From positions 83,694 to 147,693 of IMG/VR virus record IMGVR_UViG_3300026320_000001: a stretch of 64,000 nt of DNA. One strand, written 5' to 3'. Below the pieces are notes generated by a model that had not been told where the DNA came from, did no database searches, and saw nothing but the letters and a program-made list of their open reading frames with translations. Both the position numbers and the translations under genes were made by a program. Positions 30,128 through 49,505 of this stretch are shown one piece after another. How positions within the stretch are numbered: the first letter of the stretch is position 1; the number at the start of each line of letters is the position of its first letter. The stretch is from a virus.

Positions 30128-31059
30128 TTATCCAATAGTTAAGAATGTTAATTCAAGAATTTTAGTAGCATCGAATGTTCCTGCAACTGCATAAATTGAA
30201 CCTTCTAGGGTTGTTGCCGCTGTCACTGTGCCAGCATCTACAGAACCATTAAAATCTTTTGATAAAACATTATTTGTGTTATCAATAATAGAAGGAAATC
30301 CAACTTTATTACCAACACCAATCGAAACTGTATCTGTCAATCTGTTACTTAATGACCTTATTACAAGGCGGATAGTATTTTCATGCTATCTCTGCAATTT
30401 TATATATTGTTGCAGTTCAGACTATATATTCACGCTTAAAATAAGCGGGATGAGTTCAGCATTTATATTACTATAAATGCCCCGTAGTCGTTAGAGGTTC
30501 TTTTGTTTTTTATATAAAAGTCTTCCTACGGTCTTGTCCATTTTTGGATTTTAACCGTTATACTCATCTTCTAATTAATTTTTATTTAATCCATATATTA
30601 CTATATGTTCAGGCAAAATTTACCTGCATGTGTTTCGGCGGGAAGGTCTACCGATGTAATTGTTGCGAAAGCTTTTACGCCCAAAACTTCAGTTGCTCCA
30701 TTCAAAGCAATTGTGTCAGTAATTGCTGTGCCAGCCATATTTGTTCCATTAACTGTGACGTTTCCAACATTACCAGACGCATTTCCCTTTATTGTTGCAA
30801 TTCTTGGAAAGTCTGGATTTGTAAATGTTCCAGTAGCATATCCAACTTGCGCTCCCGATGTCAACGCAATTGCCGCATGAACATAAGTTGCAGTTCCAAG
30901 TGCTGGAGTTGTTGAATATTTAAGTGTATTTACTGGTGAAAGAGTTCCAGCACCAGAAAGGGATGCTCCACCCATTATCAAAGTTCCCAACTGTGCCCTT
31001 TGAGATGCCGCATTCATATTATTTAAATCAGAAATTCTTTTAGCTGTAACAGTAGTCAT
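30128..31059 (-). CDS. probable virion protein, spliced (exons 31059-30622 and 30337-30128; 215 aa)
   Basis: Removing 30338-30621 joins ...LPAETHAG|TDTVSIG... in frame; Thr/Gly/Ala-rich, AGGAGG RBS. Confidence 0.8.
30338..30621 (-). ncRNA. group I intron, ORF-less (284 nt)
   Basis: P1 CAGGU/GCCUG with U.G at the 5' splice site; P7 elements AACGACUA and UAUAGUC; P3 GAUGAG/CUCAUC; terminal G; in-frame exon join. Confidence 0.9.
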
Positions 31060-32497: not shown

Positions 32498-32499
32498 GA

Positions 32500-32823
32500 C
32501 TATATCTTTGTAAAATCAGTTCCAACATATATTCCCCCATCGTTTTCAACTGTAACTTTTTTTGGTTTATAAGGGTCACTTGTTGAAACAACAACTTCTT
32601 GAACATAGATAATATTTGTATATCCAAGAAATCTTGGAACATAATAATTATTTGGTAATTTAATAAAATCTATTGTATAATTTATATTATTAATTTTTTC
32701 TATATTTGTAGTTACAACGTCAGAACTAAAAGTATAACCAATTGGCAATTCTGTTTGAGTATTTGTTTCAAACATACTTGCTGTCAATCTTGGTTTTACG
32801 GGATTTATAATTTTATAATTCAT
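32500..32823 (-). CDS. hypothetical protein, lysis-cassette neighbour
   Basis: 107-aa ORF with AAGGA RBS. Confidence 0.65.
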   Translation of the reverse strand: MNYKIINPVKPRLTASMFETNTQTELPIGYTFSSDVVTTNIEKINNINYTIDFIKLPNNYYVPRFLGYTNIIYVQEVVVSTSDPYKPKKVTVENDGGIYVGTDFTKI

Positions 32824-43657: not shown

Positions 43658-43936
43658 TCAAGGTTTTATTTCTGTAGTTTGTTCTGAAACTTCTTCTATA
43701 CTTTCAGATTCTTCGTTTTCATCATTAAGCATATGATACATTCTATGGTCGAATTCTGCTTCGGCTGTTTCACTTGTAAGAGCAAGTGTTTCTAAAATAA
43801 CCATTCCGGCTTTTGCCATAAGTAAAGGGATATTGTCAGACATGAATCCTTGAGGCCATGATTCTTCGCCAAAATTTGCTTCACACCATGTTTCTAAAGT
43901 TTGAGCTAAATCTGATTCTAATTTTGGATGTAACAT
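43658..43936 (-). CDS. acidic hypothetical protein
   Basis: 92-aa ORF, translationally coupled. Confidence 0.7.
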   Translation of the reverse strand: MLHPKLESDLAQTLETWCEANFGEESWPQGFMSDNIPLLMAKAGMVILETLALTSETAEAEFDHRMYHMLNDENEESESIEEVSEQTTEIKP

Positions 43937-44313
43937 TATTTATTCTCCATTTCTGAAATCGCAATATCATTTGCTTTACTTTTAATTTTTCTTTTTTCTG
44001 GACTTCTCAAAAGGTCACGTAAATTTTGACCCAATTGTACTACTGCACGTTTACCGGCAGGAAAATCTTGGTAAATTGTTTTTCCTTGTAAACGACTTTC
44101 TCTTGCATTTACACCTTTTCTAGCTGGTAAAATTTGTATATAAAGATGCATTAAGCCTCTAATATCTATATCAATTCCGTTTTCAATTGATTCGGCAAAT
44201 ATGTCTTCAAATGTTTTCAGAAATATTTTTGCATCATTGACTGTAAAGCTTCCTCGTTCGGCAAGCATTTGTATAAATTGGTCACGGTCAATAAAATTTG
44301 TATTTTTAGTCAT
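43936..44313 (-). CDS. HU/IHF-like DNA-binding protein
   Basis: R.QFI..LA.R, IDIRGL, PARKGVN arm; near a YonO-like RNAP as in SPbeta-type layouts. Confidence 0.75.
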   Translation of the reverse strand: MTKNTNFIDRDQFIQMLAERGSFTVNDAKIFLKTFEDIFAESIENGIDIDIRGLMHLYIQILPARKGVNARESRLQGKTIYQDFPAGKRAVVQLGQNLRDLLRSPEKRKIKSKANDIAISEMENK

Positions 44314-44349
44314 TTTTTACTCTTCTCCTACCAATATATAATGGGGTAC

Positions 44350-45132
44350 TTAACTTTCGCCATTTTTCACAAGTCTTTTTTTAGATTCGAGTTTAATTTT
44401 ATTTAAATATGTTTTATAACATTCTATACAAAAATCATGTTTTTTAGATTTTACTATTTCTTTTCCACATTCTACACAAAAATATTGTATAAAAGAAGTT
44501 ATATTGTTTATATCTGTAATCACCATAAAATGTTTTCCTTTATCATCGGCAAAATTCAGTTTAAAACTTTTATCACTAAAAAGATTTGTTTCGATAAACC
44601 CTCTAATACCATCTAATTCATATTTTATTCTATTAGATTCTTTTTCTGTAGGATGAGAAAATCCAGCAAAATATAATACAAAATTGAAATCCATATTTAA
44701 ATAATAAGCATGACTTTTTCTTTTTATTTCTTTTATTCTAGCCGTAGAAAATTTTTGAAGTCTAGCCAAAACTATCATGGTAAAAAGAATTCGATATAAT
44801 TTATGAGGTAATTTTTTTATTTTTTCTATTTCAGAAACATAAACTGGTATATTCATTGTTCCCGATTTTAATTTATACATTTTTGATTTTCTTATGGATT
44901 TATTTATCATGTTTTGATAAATAACAGGATTGAAATATTCATCCTCATTCTTACAAAAATCAATTATCATATTGTAAATAGTCTTATCTTTATGACCTTG
45001 CATATGAAAATATTTACTCAACAAACCTAATTCATAATTGTTTATTACATGACCAGTAAAGCCATATTTAATTATCTGGTTAGATTTACTTATTTCGTCC
45101 AGTATCGGGAGTCTCTTTGGCAATGGAATCAA
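44350..45132 (-). CDS. hypothetical protein with C-terminal zinc finger
   Basis: CVECGK...FCIEC; start uncertain. Confidence 0.7.
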   Translation of the reverse strand: MIPLPKRLPILDEISKSNQIIKYGFTGHVINNYELGLLSKYFHMQGHKDKTIYNMIIDFCKNEDEYFNPVIYQNMINKSIRKSKMYKLKSGTMNIPVYVSEIEKIKKLPHKLYRILFTMIVLARLQKFSTARIKEIKRKSHAYYLNMDFNFVLYFAGFSHPTEKESNRIKYELDGIRGFIETNLFSDKSFKLNFADDKGKHFMVITDINNITSFIQYFCVECGKEIVKSKKHDFCIECYKTYLNKIKLESKKRLVKNGES

Positions 45133-45805
45133 TTCTCCTTTTTGCTATCTTATATTTTATTTTATCATATTCAATACCAATAACATTTCTATTATTTTTT
45201 AATCCCCAAGAAATTGTTGTACCTGAACCAACAAATGGGTCAACTATTAAATCACCTTCATCGGTATATGGAAGTAAAATTCTATCCATAAGTTTTAAAG
45301 GTTTTTGCCATTCTACAAGTTTTCCGGTTTCAGGATTAGATATGCGTTCTTTGGCAACAGTGGTTAAACAAATATCGTCTATCCAAGCTGTTGCTTTTTT
45401 TGTTATTCTTCCCGAGGGATTCAATCTCTTAGAACCTGTGGTTGCTTTTGGGACTTGAATCCTGTCAGGATAAAATTTATAATTTGAACCTTTACAATAA
45501 ATGAGTATGTCATCATAGCATTGATGAAATTTATTAGATGGAGAACGCCCCCATTCGTTTTTCCATACAAGATGATTTAAAAATGTTGCGCCATTGATTT
45601 CATCTTCCATATAAACCCTGAATCTATGTTGACTATGAAAATCAGTCATGGCAATAAATATTCCGCCATCTTTTAACATGTCATAATAATGGTCTACCCA
45701 ATTAAAATCAAGGTTTTCATATATATAATCAGCAAAGATAATATCAACTGTTTTACTGTCTCTATTGAACTTCATATTGTCCATGTTCAAAAGTTTGTAA
45801 GTCAT
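45086..45805 (-). CDS. N4/N6 DNA methyltransferase (beta class), atypical motif IV
   Basis: QKP..LM, GDLIVDPFVGSGTT, IGIE; DYIY where DPPY is expected. Confidence 0.8.
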   Translation of the reverse strand: MTYKLLNMDNMKFNRDSKTVDIIFADYIYENLDFNWVDHYYDMLKDGGIFIAMTDFHSQHRFRVYMEDEINGATFLNHLVWKNEWGRSPSNKFHQCYDDILIYCKGSNYKFYPDRIQVPKATTGSKRLNPSGRITKKATAWIDDICLTTVAKERISNPETGKLVEWQKPLKLMDRILLPYTDEGDLIVDPFVGSGTTISWGLKNNRNVIGIEYDKIKYKIAKRRIDSIAKETPDTGRNK

Positions 45806-48800
45806 TTATTCTAAATTCCTTTTCTGAGTAATTTTTATTGAGAAAATTTATTTTTCCCATATGGTCTAAAATTGGAACAATTATTTTTCTATTGGAATTT
45901 GAGAGCATATTATTTATAATGCCCTCCCCGAACAGGCTCCAACACATTTCACTTTGAGAATTGTTTTGATAACAAACTCGAACAGCAAGATTTGCTAGTT
46001 CATTTATATTAGAGGATATATTAAACAAGGCTTTATTTTTTATTGCCGCCGCCATTTGTTCAAAGTTTTCATAATCGCTGGTTTCATAAGTTTTTCTTTT
46101 AAAGGATTTATATTCTTTATATAATTCTTCCATTTTTTCCAGTTTTATTTTATTTAATGAAATGTTTTTATCAATATATATATTAAAATCAAAATTAAAA
46201 TCTTTTTTCAATGAAATTTTATATTCTTTTATCTGATTTGAAATATATTTATAAACTTTATCCATAATTCCATTTGAATTAATTAAAAATGGAATATATT
46301 TAACATATTTTTCATATATTTCTTGTTCTTTTTTATGTCTTTTTTTAGATAATAAAACATCTAATCCATATCCAAATTTAGATTGACAATAATTTTCATA
46401 AATTTTATTATATTTTTTATATTCATTCATCTTGTGAGGGTAAAGATAGGTCATCCAAAGAGGACGTTTATCAATAATAATTTTATTTTGAATATTTATC
46501 TGTTCTATCTCTTGTAATGTCATGGAAGATTTCAACTTAATCCATCTCCCCCATTCCGGTATTTTCTTGGTAATGATTCCTTTTTGTTTATCTATTTCAT
46601 TACCTTGTAGTTTACGACATATTTTTAATCTTTCCATAATCATTTTATATTCAATAGAATCTTTTTCAAATAATGAAAGCATTGAATATAATGTTGTGGA
46701 TTGATTTGTTATAAGTCCAATCTTTGAGCCAAAAGAATTGATGTCTGATAAAGCCAGATTATTATTTTCTATAATTCCTTTTGGTGCAGATTTTTTTTCA
46801 TATGATATTGGCAATCCATTGGATGTGCCTTGAATAAAAACATCATTATCTGTTGTGAATAAAATATCGAAATCAAACTTTTATACCCTCGGTTTCCCGA
46901 TATTTTTAAGGGGAATAGACTATATCTTTATCCAATTCAAAATTGGATATTTGGCATTTCCTAAGAATGAGTTTCACATTCAAAGTACGGTTTTCACCTA
47001 GTCGTTACATGTTCTATTTTCATAGCTTCACACGGTATTTACTTTATTGATTTATTTTATTTTTATTCTCTTTATTGGCAAAAGAAAATAAAAACCCTCT
47101 ATATAAAACTTTATTATTTATCATTGTTGATAGTCTATTTTGAACACTTTTAACCTTTTTAGCTCTCACAATTTTTTTCTCAATCAAAAATTCAGCACAA
47201 TGTTTTACAGTTAAAAATGTCTCAATAATTATATTATCTTTTATCATATCTACTGGTTTTGCCTTAGGATTATTTTCATAAGTTATGTTTCTATGATTCT
47301 CAACCCATTGATTGTATTTTTCTTCGCTCATTCTTTCTTTTGGTGAGACACCAAATTGAGAATTTTTATCACCAGTAACAGAAACACTTCTATTTTTCAA
47401 CCATTGTTCATATATTTCTGGAGTCATTCTTTCTTTTGGAGATACTCCGTACATTGGATTATTTTCACCTCTTAAAACTGGAAAAAATTTTCCACCCGGA
47501 GAAATATTGCATTGTGCTTGATTTATTTCTTTATATTTTTCAATATAATAGATTTCTCTTTCATAAGCAACATCTTCATCCAAATTATCTTCTAGGATTT
47601 TATAATCACAATCATATTTATTATAATATCTCATAAAATATATATTTCTTCTATTTAATCTTTTTGCTCTTCTTCCAGAACCTTTTCCTATGTAAAAAAC
47701 ATTATCTGTTTCTTTATTGAACCAAGCATAAACATAATGTTTATTCAAACCCATATCCTATCTGCCAATATTTAAAATCAATTTTAGTATTCCACCGTTA
47801 GCAGTATTTCTACCACACCTTATATTTATAAGTTAACCAAATTTTTTATTATACATTACTGTATAAGGAGACAGTGTTGTTCATCTCCATCACCATAAAG
47901 CATCATGTCAATACCATGAATATTGAAAACAATACCGCTTTTCAAATGACCATACCATTTATCAATTTCATTATTTCTAATTAGATTGAGAGTATTCATT
48001 TCACTTTTCCAAGTAAGAGGACTTCTGCCCGATGCAACTTTGAAAATATTTTGTTCTATCCAATAAGAAGAATAGTGTTCATGTTCTTCTAACAATCCTT
48101 TTACTGGTAAATTAAAAGCATGTTGACATAAAGCAAATGGGTCACTAATACAAACTTGATAATTACCATTTATCAGTAATCCACCAGTATATGATTCTCT
48201 TATTTTCTTATTTAGTGTTCTAGAAATATATTGTTTAATAAAATAATCTTTTGATGAATTTTTATTTATAAGTAATGCTTTTATATAATTATTATCAATT
48301 GATTTCCATTGAGTTTCATCAAATTTTTCTATAGATGTTCCCATTAAATAAAGAAGTGATTTTTCTGGAGACTCGAAACTTATTTCTTTAAAGTATTGAA
48401 TAGTGTCATTGCACAAATATTCAATATCTTTATTATCAATATCTAAAACTTGAATATATTGATAAGATGACCAGAAATTTTTCTTTTCTTCTTTTGGGGT
48501 TTGACGAGAGATTCCCCAAGAAAGATTATTTGATTCACAATTTGTTTTATAGTTTTCTAAATTAGAATAAGAACTCCATAGCTTAAATTGAGAAGCTGTA
48601 AGTATGCAATCTATATCGTTCACATTATGTAAATTACCCCATACATCAATTATATTTTCCACATTATATTCTTTTGCAAATCCATGAATATCAAAAGATA
48701 CACATTGACCCTTTAAAAATGAACCTCGAATACAAAAAGAATTTGGAATATAATCTAATTCCATTTCACTTGACCATATCTTGGAAAATTCTAATGATAT

Positions 48801-49505
48801 AATTCCCTGCCCATCAAATATATTTTGAACAATCGGAATATTCCTTTTTTCAACATGGTCTATTTTGTTTTCATCTTCATAAACAAAATCAACATTTCTA
48901 TTTTTTGTTATTTCATAATCTGGAACTACAACAAATCTAGGTGCTGTAACTTTATGTGTTGCACTGGCATATAAAGCAAAATATGAATTAAACTTATTAA
49001 TATTTAATTCAATATCTTTATTTCTTCCATTGTCAAATATGTTTATTAATTTTTTACAAATAGACTCTTCTGCGAAAATAGATGTGTTACGCCTCGCATG
49101 TCCAGCCCCCGTAAGTAGACGAATATACTTCTTATTATTTATAAATAATCCTTGTTTAATTATTTGTTTGTAATGTGCCACATTATTAAAATGAATAGAT
49201 ATAATATCAGGAACAAATAATATATCTTCTAATTCTTTATTTATTTCAAAGATTCTATTTCTATTTATTTTAGAATCTTTTTCTTTTTTTAATGTTCTTT
49301 TTTCTTGCAACAATTCATCAATATGATATTGTGAAAATTCTATATCGTTTATTCTTCGATAAGTTCTCAATAGTTCTGAATCAGCCAGTGAAATAATTTC
49401 ATTATTTTTCAACGCTTCTTCATATGAAATTTGTATTGTATAGTTTGAATTTTTCAAACGCTCTGATGTAAATTTCATGATGGAAAACTGTTGAAGTTTT
49501 TTCAT
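45762..49505 (-). CDS. yonO: YonO-like single-chain two-barrel RNA polymerase, spliced (exons 49505-47883 and 46877-45762; 912 aa)
   Basis: FDGQG, FCIR..FLKG, ILTASQFKLW, SYQYIQ, SDP, RSP, spliced GD|FDFDILFTTDN, IGLITN, QGNEIDKQKGI. Confidence 0.88.
46878..47882 (-). mobile_element. group I intron (1005 nt) carrying a GIY-YIG endonuclease
   Basis: P1 GGAGAU/GUCUCC with U.G at the splice site; AACGACUA and AAGAUAUAGUC P7 elements; terminal G; in-frame exon join. Confidence 0.92.
47044..47754 (-). CDS. intron-encoded GIY-YIG homing endonuclease
   Basis: YVY...FYIGKGSGRR, CNISPGG, GENNPMYG, NUMOD1-like AKPV C-terminus. Confidence 0.88.
   Translation of the reverse strand: MGLNKHYVYAWFNKETDNVFYIGKGSGRRAKRLNRRNIYFMRYYNKYDCDYKILEDNLDEDVAYEREIYYIEKYKEINQAQCNISPGGKFFPVLRGENNPMYGVSPKERMTPEIYEQWLKNRSVSVTGDKNSQFGVSPKERMSEEKYNQWVENHRNITYENNPKAKPVDMIKDNIIIETFLTVKHCAEFLIEKKIVRAKKVKSVQNRLSTMINNKVLYRGFLFSFANKENKNKINQ

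Follow-up and report, generated by a model that had tools for sequence, protein, structure and literature searches.

The subject of this analysis is a polymerase gene in a 64,000-nt stretch of viral DNA, positions 83,694-147,693 of IMG/VR record IMGVR_UViG_3300026320_000001 (hereafter the window). The gene is predicted to encode a YonO-like RNA polymerase and lies on the minus strand, as do all of the features of the gene and its insertion described below. Exon 1 (47883..49505) comprises 541 codons and exon 2 (45762..46877) comprises 371 codons and a stop; between them lie 1005 nt (46878..47882), from a G at 47882 to a terminal G at 46878, that very probably constitute a mobile group I intron with its own homing endonuclease gene (47044..47754). 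The insertion separates the codon for the first aspartate of the DxDxD triad (Asp1) from those for the second and third (Asp2 and Asp3), and related sequences interrupt the same short stretch of the gene in other phages.

The polymerase gene and its two exons

From the list of open reading frames (ORFs) and the sequence itself, exon 1 ends ...YGDGD, with Asp1 as its final residue, and exon 2 starts FDFDILFTT, which supplies Asp2 and Asp3. The final letters of exon 1 are GGA GAU, ending at 47883, and the first letters of exon 2, at 46877, are UUUGAUUUC. Joining the exons with a script yielded a 912-amino-acid (aa) protein whose junction, YGDGD|FDFDILFTT, aligned without gaps to SDFDYDIIATT in the unsplit homologue of Bacillus phage BUCT082 and to DNDGDKALII in YonO, indicating that the split falls directly after the first aspartate of the triad. 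It is only in this spliced product that D-F-D-F-D is aligned with the D-N-D-G-D of YonO.

The best match to exon 1 in tblastn searches was the 924-aa protein of BUCT082 (40% identity, E = 9e-116), and the match of exon 2 to the same protein begins at query residue 1, directly abutting that of exon 1. Exon 1 also matched yonO of SPBc2 (E = 2e-21, 26% identity, 86% of the query covered) and PHROG 8308 (E = 3e-94), and exon 2 matched PHROG 35857 (E = 7e-30). The Pfam family RdRP (PF05183) was matched by 15 of 17 aligned relatives (best E = 2.2e-21), with no match for exon 1 of the window at E 0.01, and a phmmer search of exon 1 against PDB sequences returned nothing useful. Taken together, these comparisons predict that the host gene specifies an RNA-synthesizing, single-chain two-barrel polymerase of the YonO family in a large SPbeta-like phage. 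YonO's aspartate triad is catalytic, as a 3D>3N mutant is inactive (PMC5467207), and the enzyme transcribes the late gene cluster of SPbeta (PMC5467207, PMC8270828).

The window gene resembles that of SPbeta YonO (Forrest et al. 2017, PMC5467207) in the homology of the product, the aligned aspartate triad and the presence of an HU gene downstream; the two differ in that SPBc2 yonO is uninterrupted, and the proteins are distant (26% identity), the closest relative that we found being that of BUCT082. The genes downstream of the polymerase gene (43936-45805, minus strand), labelled from their translations, are a DNA methyltransferase-like ORF (45086..45805), an ORF ending in a cysteine-rich stretch (44350..45132) and the HU-like gene (43936..44313). 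An HU or other DNA-binding gene follows yonO in BUCT082 and SPBc2 as well.

Read without splicing, the gene gives two separate frames. The first is a 549-aa ORF (49505..47856) that ends ...MLYGDGDEQHCLLIQ* at a stop codon eight codons into the insertion and whose product contains one of the three triad aspartates. The second (46877..45762) begins FDFDILFTTDNDV. An in-frame UAA lies two codons upstream of exon 2 (46881..46883), and the first possible start codon within the exon is a UUG at 46814, past the codons for Asp2 and Asp3. With this stop codon in place and no start before Asp2 and Asp3, an active enzyme requires RNA splicing. The same features bear on the idea that the polymerase is a gene in pieces, in which the two halves are translated as separate subunits on either side of a free-standing endonuclease gene and no splicing occurs, as in the Aeh1 nrdA/mobE arrangement. 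Consistent with that idea, PHROGs keeps separate families for the halves (25339 and 35857), and sequence records list them as separate coding sequences (CDSs), namely CST179 and CST178 in Clostridium phage c-st and yonO_2 and yonO_1 in Bacillus phage vB_BsuS-Goe14. Against it, a second subunit initiated at the UUG would start downstream of both of the aspartates that exon 2 is needed to supply, and the spacer between the halves is a conserved, covarying ribozyme fold, as set out in the next section.

The intron and its RNA structure

The insertion begins GAAC at 47882 and ends ...AUAAAAG at 46878, and a terminal G is likewise present in 10 of 11 relatives with an intron at the same site. Eight inserted sequences from the IMG/VR scan described below share its architecture, and nhmmer profiles built from these eight introns, which are homologues from other phages and do not include that of the window, gave only two significant matches, at positions 47886-47790 (E = 1.2e-15) and at 47039-46872 (E = 5.9e-30). 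The 3' 200 nt, when searched alone, matched Rfam model RF00028 (model positions 113-253, 24.4 bits, E = 1.4e-4), and both the R element, AACGACUA, and the S element, AAGAUAUAGUC, are aligned within that match.

The 5' part of the fold begins with P1 (47867..47888), in which the exon end GGAGAU (47888-47883) pairs with the guide GUCUCC (47872-47867) through 6 bp, including a U.G at 47883/47872. In the relatives, changes in the guide go together with changes in the codon that precedes Asp1 (GGAGAU/GUCUCC, AGUGAU/GUCACU, UCAGAU/GUCUGA and GCAGAU/GUCUGC), and this tracking of a variable codon fixes the position of the 5' splice site. P2 (47849..47866) is a hairpin with a GUAA tetraloop, a GNRA loop being found throughout the family, and six of its seven pairs are changed on both sides across the nine introns compared. 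The 5' strand of P3, UUUGGUU (47835..47841), pairs with UGCCAAA (46950..46956; helix table), and the helix shows a compensatory series of UUUGG/CCAAA, CUUGG/CCAAG, UCAGG/CCUGA, UUCGG/CCGAA and CGUGG/CCACG.

Between P3 and J3/4 lie two family-specific hairpins (47803..47832), provisionally named hpA (47832-47819) and hpB (47814-47803). In hpA four of five pairs are compensatory and pairing is 100%; hpB folds as a hairpin in all nine introns though the sequences differ. In the window intron and its eight relatives this region is flanked by invariant GAAC and GGUGU, and no named group I intron helix is known to us from this position. J3/4 (GCUAA) precedes the 5' strand of P4, ACGGUG (47793..47798), which pairs with UACCGU (47032..47037; helix table). 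P4 occurs as five pair sets, the variants being ACAGUG/UACUGU, ACAGGG/UCCUGU, ACGAUG/UAUCGU and ACAAGG/UCUUGU. A first guess at P4 (CUGCUAA/UUGGCAG, which would place the endonuclease ORF in P6) was dropped, since the relatives show P4 to be ACGGUG/UACCGU with the ORF in the P5 loop. This loop is closed by an 8-bp helix, read from the sequence, whose 5' strand AUUGAUUU (47775..47782) pairs with AAAUCAAU (47053-47046); the 3' strand overlaps the stop codon of the endonuclease ORF, and an analogous long closing helix is present in the related intron of locus L017.

In the 3' part, P6 is a CUAU-GAAA-AUAG hairpin (47014..47025; helix table and covariation). The 5' strand of P7, GACUA (46999..47003), lies inside the R element and pairs with UAGUC (46922-46918), in agreement with the Rfam alignment; seven introns have the pair set GACUA/UAGUC and the other two have GAGCA/UGCUC, with two of five pairs compensatory and 100% pairing. 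Folding places two further helices, P7.1 (46998-46989, with a GAAA loop) and P7.2 (46985-46961), at 46961..46998, and in P7.2 five of seven pairs are compensatory with 100% pairing. In the scheme of Michel and Westhof, P7.1 and P7.2 between P7 and the 3' strand of P3 are typical of subgroup IA. The presence of these extra helices argues that the intron belongs to subgroup IA and is IA2-like. P8 follows as a hairpin (46929..46949; Rfam, helix table and covariation), and then the S element (46918..46928; exact match, Rfam alignment), which holds the 3' strand of P7. The intron closes with P9, its inner hairpin and the terminal G (46878..46913): CCC (46913-46911) pairs with GGG (46888-46886) around UCGG-GAAA-CCGA (46900-46889), the stem of which covaries as UCGG/CCGA, UUAC/GUAA, UUGC/GCAA, UCAG/CUGA and CUAG/CUAG.

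Covariation was measured on MAFFT alignments of the nine introns (that of the window and eight others) that were not fitted to the structure. Pairs changed on both sides numbered 13 of 18 in the 5' part and 24 of 35 in the 3' part, with 88% and 85% of cells paired, respectively. The covariation scores of 0.64 (5') and 0.52 (3') compare with 0.06-0.18 in slid controls, and none of 500 shuffles reached the observed values. All of the core helices (P3-P4-P6-P7-P8-P9) both pair and covary.

With its core intact, the intron would be expected to self-splice in vivo. The primary transcript would fold into a ribozyme in which P1, formed by GGAGAU and GUCUCC, presents the 5' splice site and P7 provides the guanosine site. 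Two transesterifications catalysed by the ribozyme would then free it from the transcript and join GGAGAU to UUUGAUUUC, and the spliced mRNA alone would encode the 912-aa enzyme with the complete D-F-D-F-D triad.

Elsewhere in the window, positions 30338-30621 (minus strand) hold a probable second group I intron, without an ORF, between ORFs 30601..31059 and 30128..30340. Its features include GCAGGU|AAAUUUUGCCUG, with a P1-like pairing that contains a U.G, as well as CUAACGACUACGGGG and AAUAUAUAGUCUGAAC. A weak match to the region came from the profile for the 3' half of the yonO introns (E = 0.026), and Rfam returned nothing for it at E<=1. An exact match to the S element at 32498-32508 was rejected as a chance match at a gene junction.

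The intron-encoded endonuclease and the state of the intron

The ORF in the P5 loop (47044..47754) encodes a 236-aa protein in which NUMOD3-type linker repeats connect a GIY-YIG domain at the N-terminus to a C-terminal domain. The protein matched PHROG 314, annotated 'homing endonuclease' (E = 4.5e-11), and a profile of 36 endonuclease homologues matched the PDB GIY-YIG protein 9u75 (E = 3e-5). Among these 36 homologues there is little or no variation at Y7-V8-Y9, Y21-I-G23, R29, E67 and N83. In an AF2 model of the protein (pLDDT 85), the top Foldseek matches were to the I-TevI catalytic domain (1mk0/1ln0; TM-score 0.64-0.66 on the target, probability 1.00, E = 8.5e-3, the E-values of these fold matches being > 0.001), that to 1mk0 having a TM-score of 0.64 on the target and a root-mean-square deviation of 3.0 over 98 columns; N-terminal GIY-YIG domains of UvrC came next. 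Homologous ORFs with 37-39% identity occupy the same P5 loop in loci L017, L023 and L043. Pfam applied to the whole protein gave a weak NUMOD3 match only, an NCBIfam scan of the protein gave no match, and phmmer against PDB sequences gave nothing useful. From sequence and model, we predict that the intron ORF encodes a divergent GIY-YIG/NUMOD3 endonuclease of the I-TevI kind.

The T4 td intron, which encodes I-TevI, is of subgroup IA2, has P7.1 and P7.2 and carries its endonuclease gene in P6a. The window intron shares with it the subgroup IA architecture, insertion into an essential enzyme gene at a conserved sequence of the catalytic site and an endonuclease in which a GIY-YIG domain is followed by NUMOD3-type linker elements, I-TevI being also the best fold match. 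It differs in its host gene, in looping out the endonuclease gene from P5 rather than P6a and in having the two extra hairpins between P3 and J3/4; the endonuclease, moreover, is only 24% identical to I-TevI in the aligned catalytic domain.

Several findings count against reading this element as an active mobile intron. The RF00028 score lies below the gathering score of 50 bits, and Rfam identified no intron either at the gathering score on the whole window or at E<=10 on the 1.6 kb from 46600 to 48200. The silence of RF00028 on the whole region is presumably due to the 750-nt loop insertion. In addition, the ORF-less intron of phage c-st scores only 25.4 bits with RF00028, suggesting that the model is weak for this lineage, and we did not take the sub-threshold score to exclude membership. 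A search for P10 found no more than 1-2 bp across the family and none in the window intron, leaving the choice of 3' splice site to rest on the terminal G and P9. With regard to the endonuclease, PF01541 was matched only when residues 1-94 were scanned alone, at 17.6 bits compared with a cut-off of 22.6 (E = 0.0048), and a Shine-Dalgarno-like AGGA precedes the AUG at 47754 by only 1 nt; translation may really start at the UUG at 47748, which has AGGA 7 nt before it. Finally, no near-identical intron-less allele of the window phage was found, which leaves recent mobility of the window copy unsupported.

The weak P10 and the low Rfam score would also suit an intron that no longer splices, the polymerase gene being then a pseudogene in the window phage, and a relative (locus L057, 1365-1724) is apparently frameshifted just after the junction. 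The exon after its intron reads UAUGACCGGAGAU, the expectation being YDGD (UAUGAYGGNGAU), and looks to contain a 1-nt insertion, which is either a sequencing error or a sign of a decaying gene. In the window, however, neither exon is broken, both being ORFs with full-length alignments to relatives; every core helix pairs, the consensus is kept in the guanosine-binding P7 and in the R and S elements, and the endonuclease ORF is full length with all of the conserved catalytic residues. We therefore regard a dead intron as highly improbable. Given the anatomy of the locus, its homology, the conserved and covarying RNA structure, the recurrent occupancy of the site and the presence or absence of the intron between near-identical alleles, we place at about 90% the probability that positions 47882..46878 are a mobile group I intron, of IA type, that interrupts a YonO-family polymerase gene between the Asp1 codon and the remainder of DxDxD.

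Much of this anatomy had been proposed in an earlier note made from the sequence alone. Its placement of a group I intron at 46878-47882 proved exact in both coordinates, on the evidence of the profiles, the 3' half of RF00028 and the covarying helices. The 5' splice site that it set right after the first catalytic aspartate codon is borne out by the gap-free alignment of D|FDFD, and the P1 that it drew (GGAGAT|GAAC..GTCTCC) does pair, with the U.G at the splice site. The host gene, as it held, is a homologue of yonO (E = 2e-21 to that of SPBc2), and the ORF is GIY-YIG, albeit divergent and below the Pfam threshold, with profile search and predicted fold in agreement. Its 549-aa unspliced product is confirmed to lack a full active site, having one aspartate of the three, and the dependence of the active enzyme on splicing follows from the UAA two codons before exon 2 and the absence of a start before Asp2 and Asp3.

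The catalytic triad as a recurrent site of intron insertion

The earlier note had also called for a survey of introns in yonO homologues. A query with a single protein found no related loci; a search of IMG/VR with an 18-sequence alignment gave 80. Insertions of 229-1099 nt were present at exactly the same codon boundary, after Asp1, in 11 of the 80 loci, and some of these relatives carry ORF-less insertions of 229-388 nt. One further locus (L034, 6624-6856) has an insertion 6 nt upstream, after the preceding aspartate codon (FAD|CDFDGD), and the database homologues P0032, P0034, P0041, P0054 and P0103 end '...HAD' at this same position. Among the best 119 database homologues, 16 end at Asp1 and five more end two residues upstream. 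A third insertion point lies 6 nt downstream of the first, after Asp2: phage c-st has its ORF-less intron there (DMD|GD), and faecal phage MT835481 has an intron of ~950 nt whose 3' end is nearly identical to that of the window intron and whose ORF, by eye, looks like that of an HNH endonuclease. The DNA for the aspartate triad of YonO-type polymerases is a hot spot for introns: insertions fall at three points spaced at 6-nt intervals, and a GAU codon precedes each.

These insertions return us to the question of whether the polymerase is a gene in pieces. As ORF-less versions occupy the same boundary, an endonuclease gene cannot explain the split there, and together with the covarying spacer and the lack of a usable start before Asp2 and Asp3 this makes separately translated subunits exceedingly improbable for the window phage, the separate database entries for the halves notwithstanding.

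A spliced group I intron of the mobile kind also accords with differences between closely related loci. Loci L023, which carries the intron, and L026, which has none at the Asp1 site, are 94.6% identical in the exons on either side; the intron shared by L043 and L045 includes the endonuclease gene in the former and lacks it in the latter. Presence and absence of this sort among alleles is what is ordinarily seen as homing introns are acquired and lost, and is the pattern of a dispensable selfish element. In the window phage the core and the endonuclease are both intact, and the endonuclease most likely cuts intron-less alleles near the triad motif, after which repair would spread the intron by homing.

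The earlier note had further proposed that splicing might act as a timing checkpoint for late expression. Rate-limiting or conditional splicing that gates the late polymerase would add to a mobile intron rather than replace it, and three things speak for it: the active enzyme does depend on splicing, YonO transcribes the SPbeta late cluster (PMC5467207, PMC8270828), and one helix of the ribozyme contains the 3' end of the endonuclease ORF, so that translation and folding could interfere with one another. Nevertheless, the intron is absent from about 85% of the relatives and from the allele with 94.6% identical flanks, and introns with different endonucleases or none occupy the three neighbouring sites at their 6-nt spacing. 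We saw no regulatory element, and a scan for promoters and terminators was at chance level, including for promoter-like sites. A timing checkpoint is thus unsupported, because close relatives lack the intron, which occurs in only about 15% of them, and the sequence holds no sign of regulated splicing; we consider such gating very unlikely. Instead, the patchy distribution, varied endonuclease content and three neighbouring sites are better explained by repeated opportunistic invasion of conserved DNA than by a regulatory device.

The closest precedent is the gp210 intron of phage PhiPA3, which lies in the virion RNA polymerase gene gp211/gp209 with its insertion beside the second aspartate (Birkholz et al. 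2024, PMC11620839). The gp210 protein is an HNH nuclease (nickase) that harms the competitor phage PhiKZ (PMC11620839). In both phages a group I intron with a homing endonuclease gene sits in an RNA polymerase gene beside the catalytic aspartates, and the position in PhiPA3 is matched by the c-st and MT835481 introns after Asp2. In PhiPA3, however, the interrupted gene codes for one subunit of a multi-subunit polymerase in a jumbo Pseudomonas phage and the nuclease is HNH, whereas in the window a gene for a single-chain YonO-type polymerase is interrupted after Asp1 and the endonuclease is GIY-YIG. The PhiPA3 intron was shown to affect competition between phages. It is unlikely, if somewhat less so than gating by splicing, that the window intron is more than a passenger, whether because splicing, or interference between endonuclease translation and folding of the P5 helix, limits when the active late polymerase appears, or because the endonuclease would cut the catalytic-site DNA of intron-less, co-infecting SPbeta-like phages and disable their late transcription, as gp210 of PhiPA3 does to PhiKZ. 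As summarized in PMC8270828, group I introns are also carried by bnrdE and bnrdF of SPbeta and by other Bacillus phage genes (Lazarevic et al. 1998). By that account these, too, are self-splicing introns in essential genes of SPbeta-type phages, the genes in that case being those for ribonucleotide reductase. In the paper library that we could search, nothing linked yonO to an intron or a homing endonuclease.

The survey revealed insertions elsewhere in these genes as well. A second hot spot, corresponding to residues 637|638 of the spliced protein (QGNEID|KQKG) and again after an aspartate codon, is empty in the window and holds insertions of 290-872 nt in four of the 80 loci (L023, L026, L036 and L042), of which L023 has introns at both sites. 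In phage Goe14 (locus L003, 5091-6395), yonO is annotated as the two CDSs yonO_2 and yonO_1, and the 300-aa 'hypothetical protein' between them is a GIY-YIG/NUMOD3/helix-turn-helix endonuclease (PF01541, E = 3.7e-7); an intron missed in annotation, at a site other than those above, very likely accounts for the interruption. The yonO gene of phage Goe11 is likewise annotated in two parts (yonO_1).

The element of the window is, on our reading, an ordinary mobile intron that implies no new mechanism, and its importance lies in part in annotation. Gene callers and family databases treat the halves of such polymerases as unrelated, as in the separate PHROGs and the paired CDSs of c-st and Goe14, and the only late-gene polymerase of these phages is consequently often missed or called truncated. 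Beyond annotation, the related ribozymes at the three sites 6 nt apart differ in what they carry, some having a GIY-YIG gene, others a putative HNH gene and others no endonuclease gene, and with its parallels to PhiPA3 this group offers a compact natural system for how introns and nucleases choose and shift their targets.

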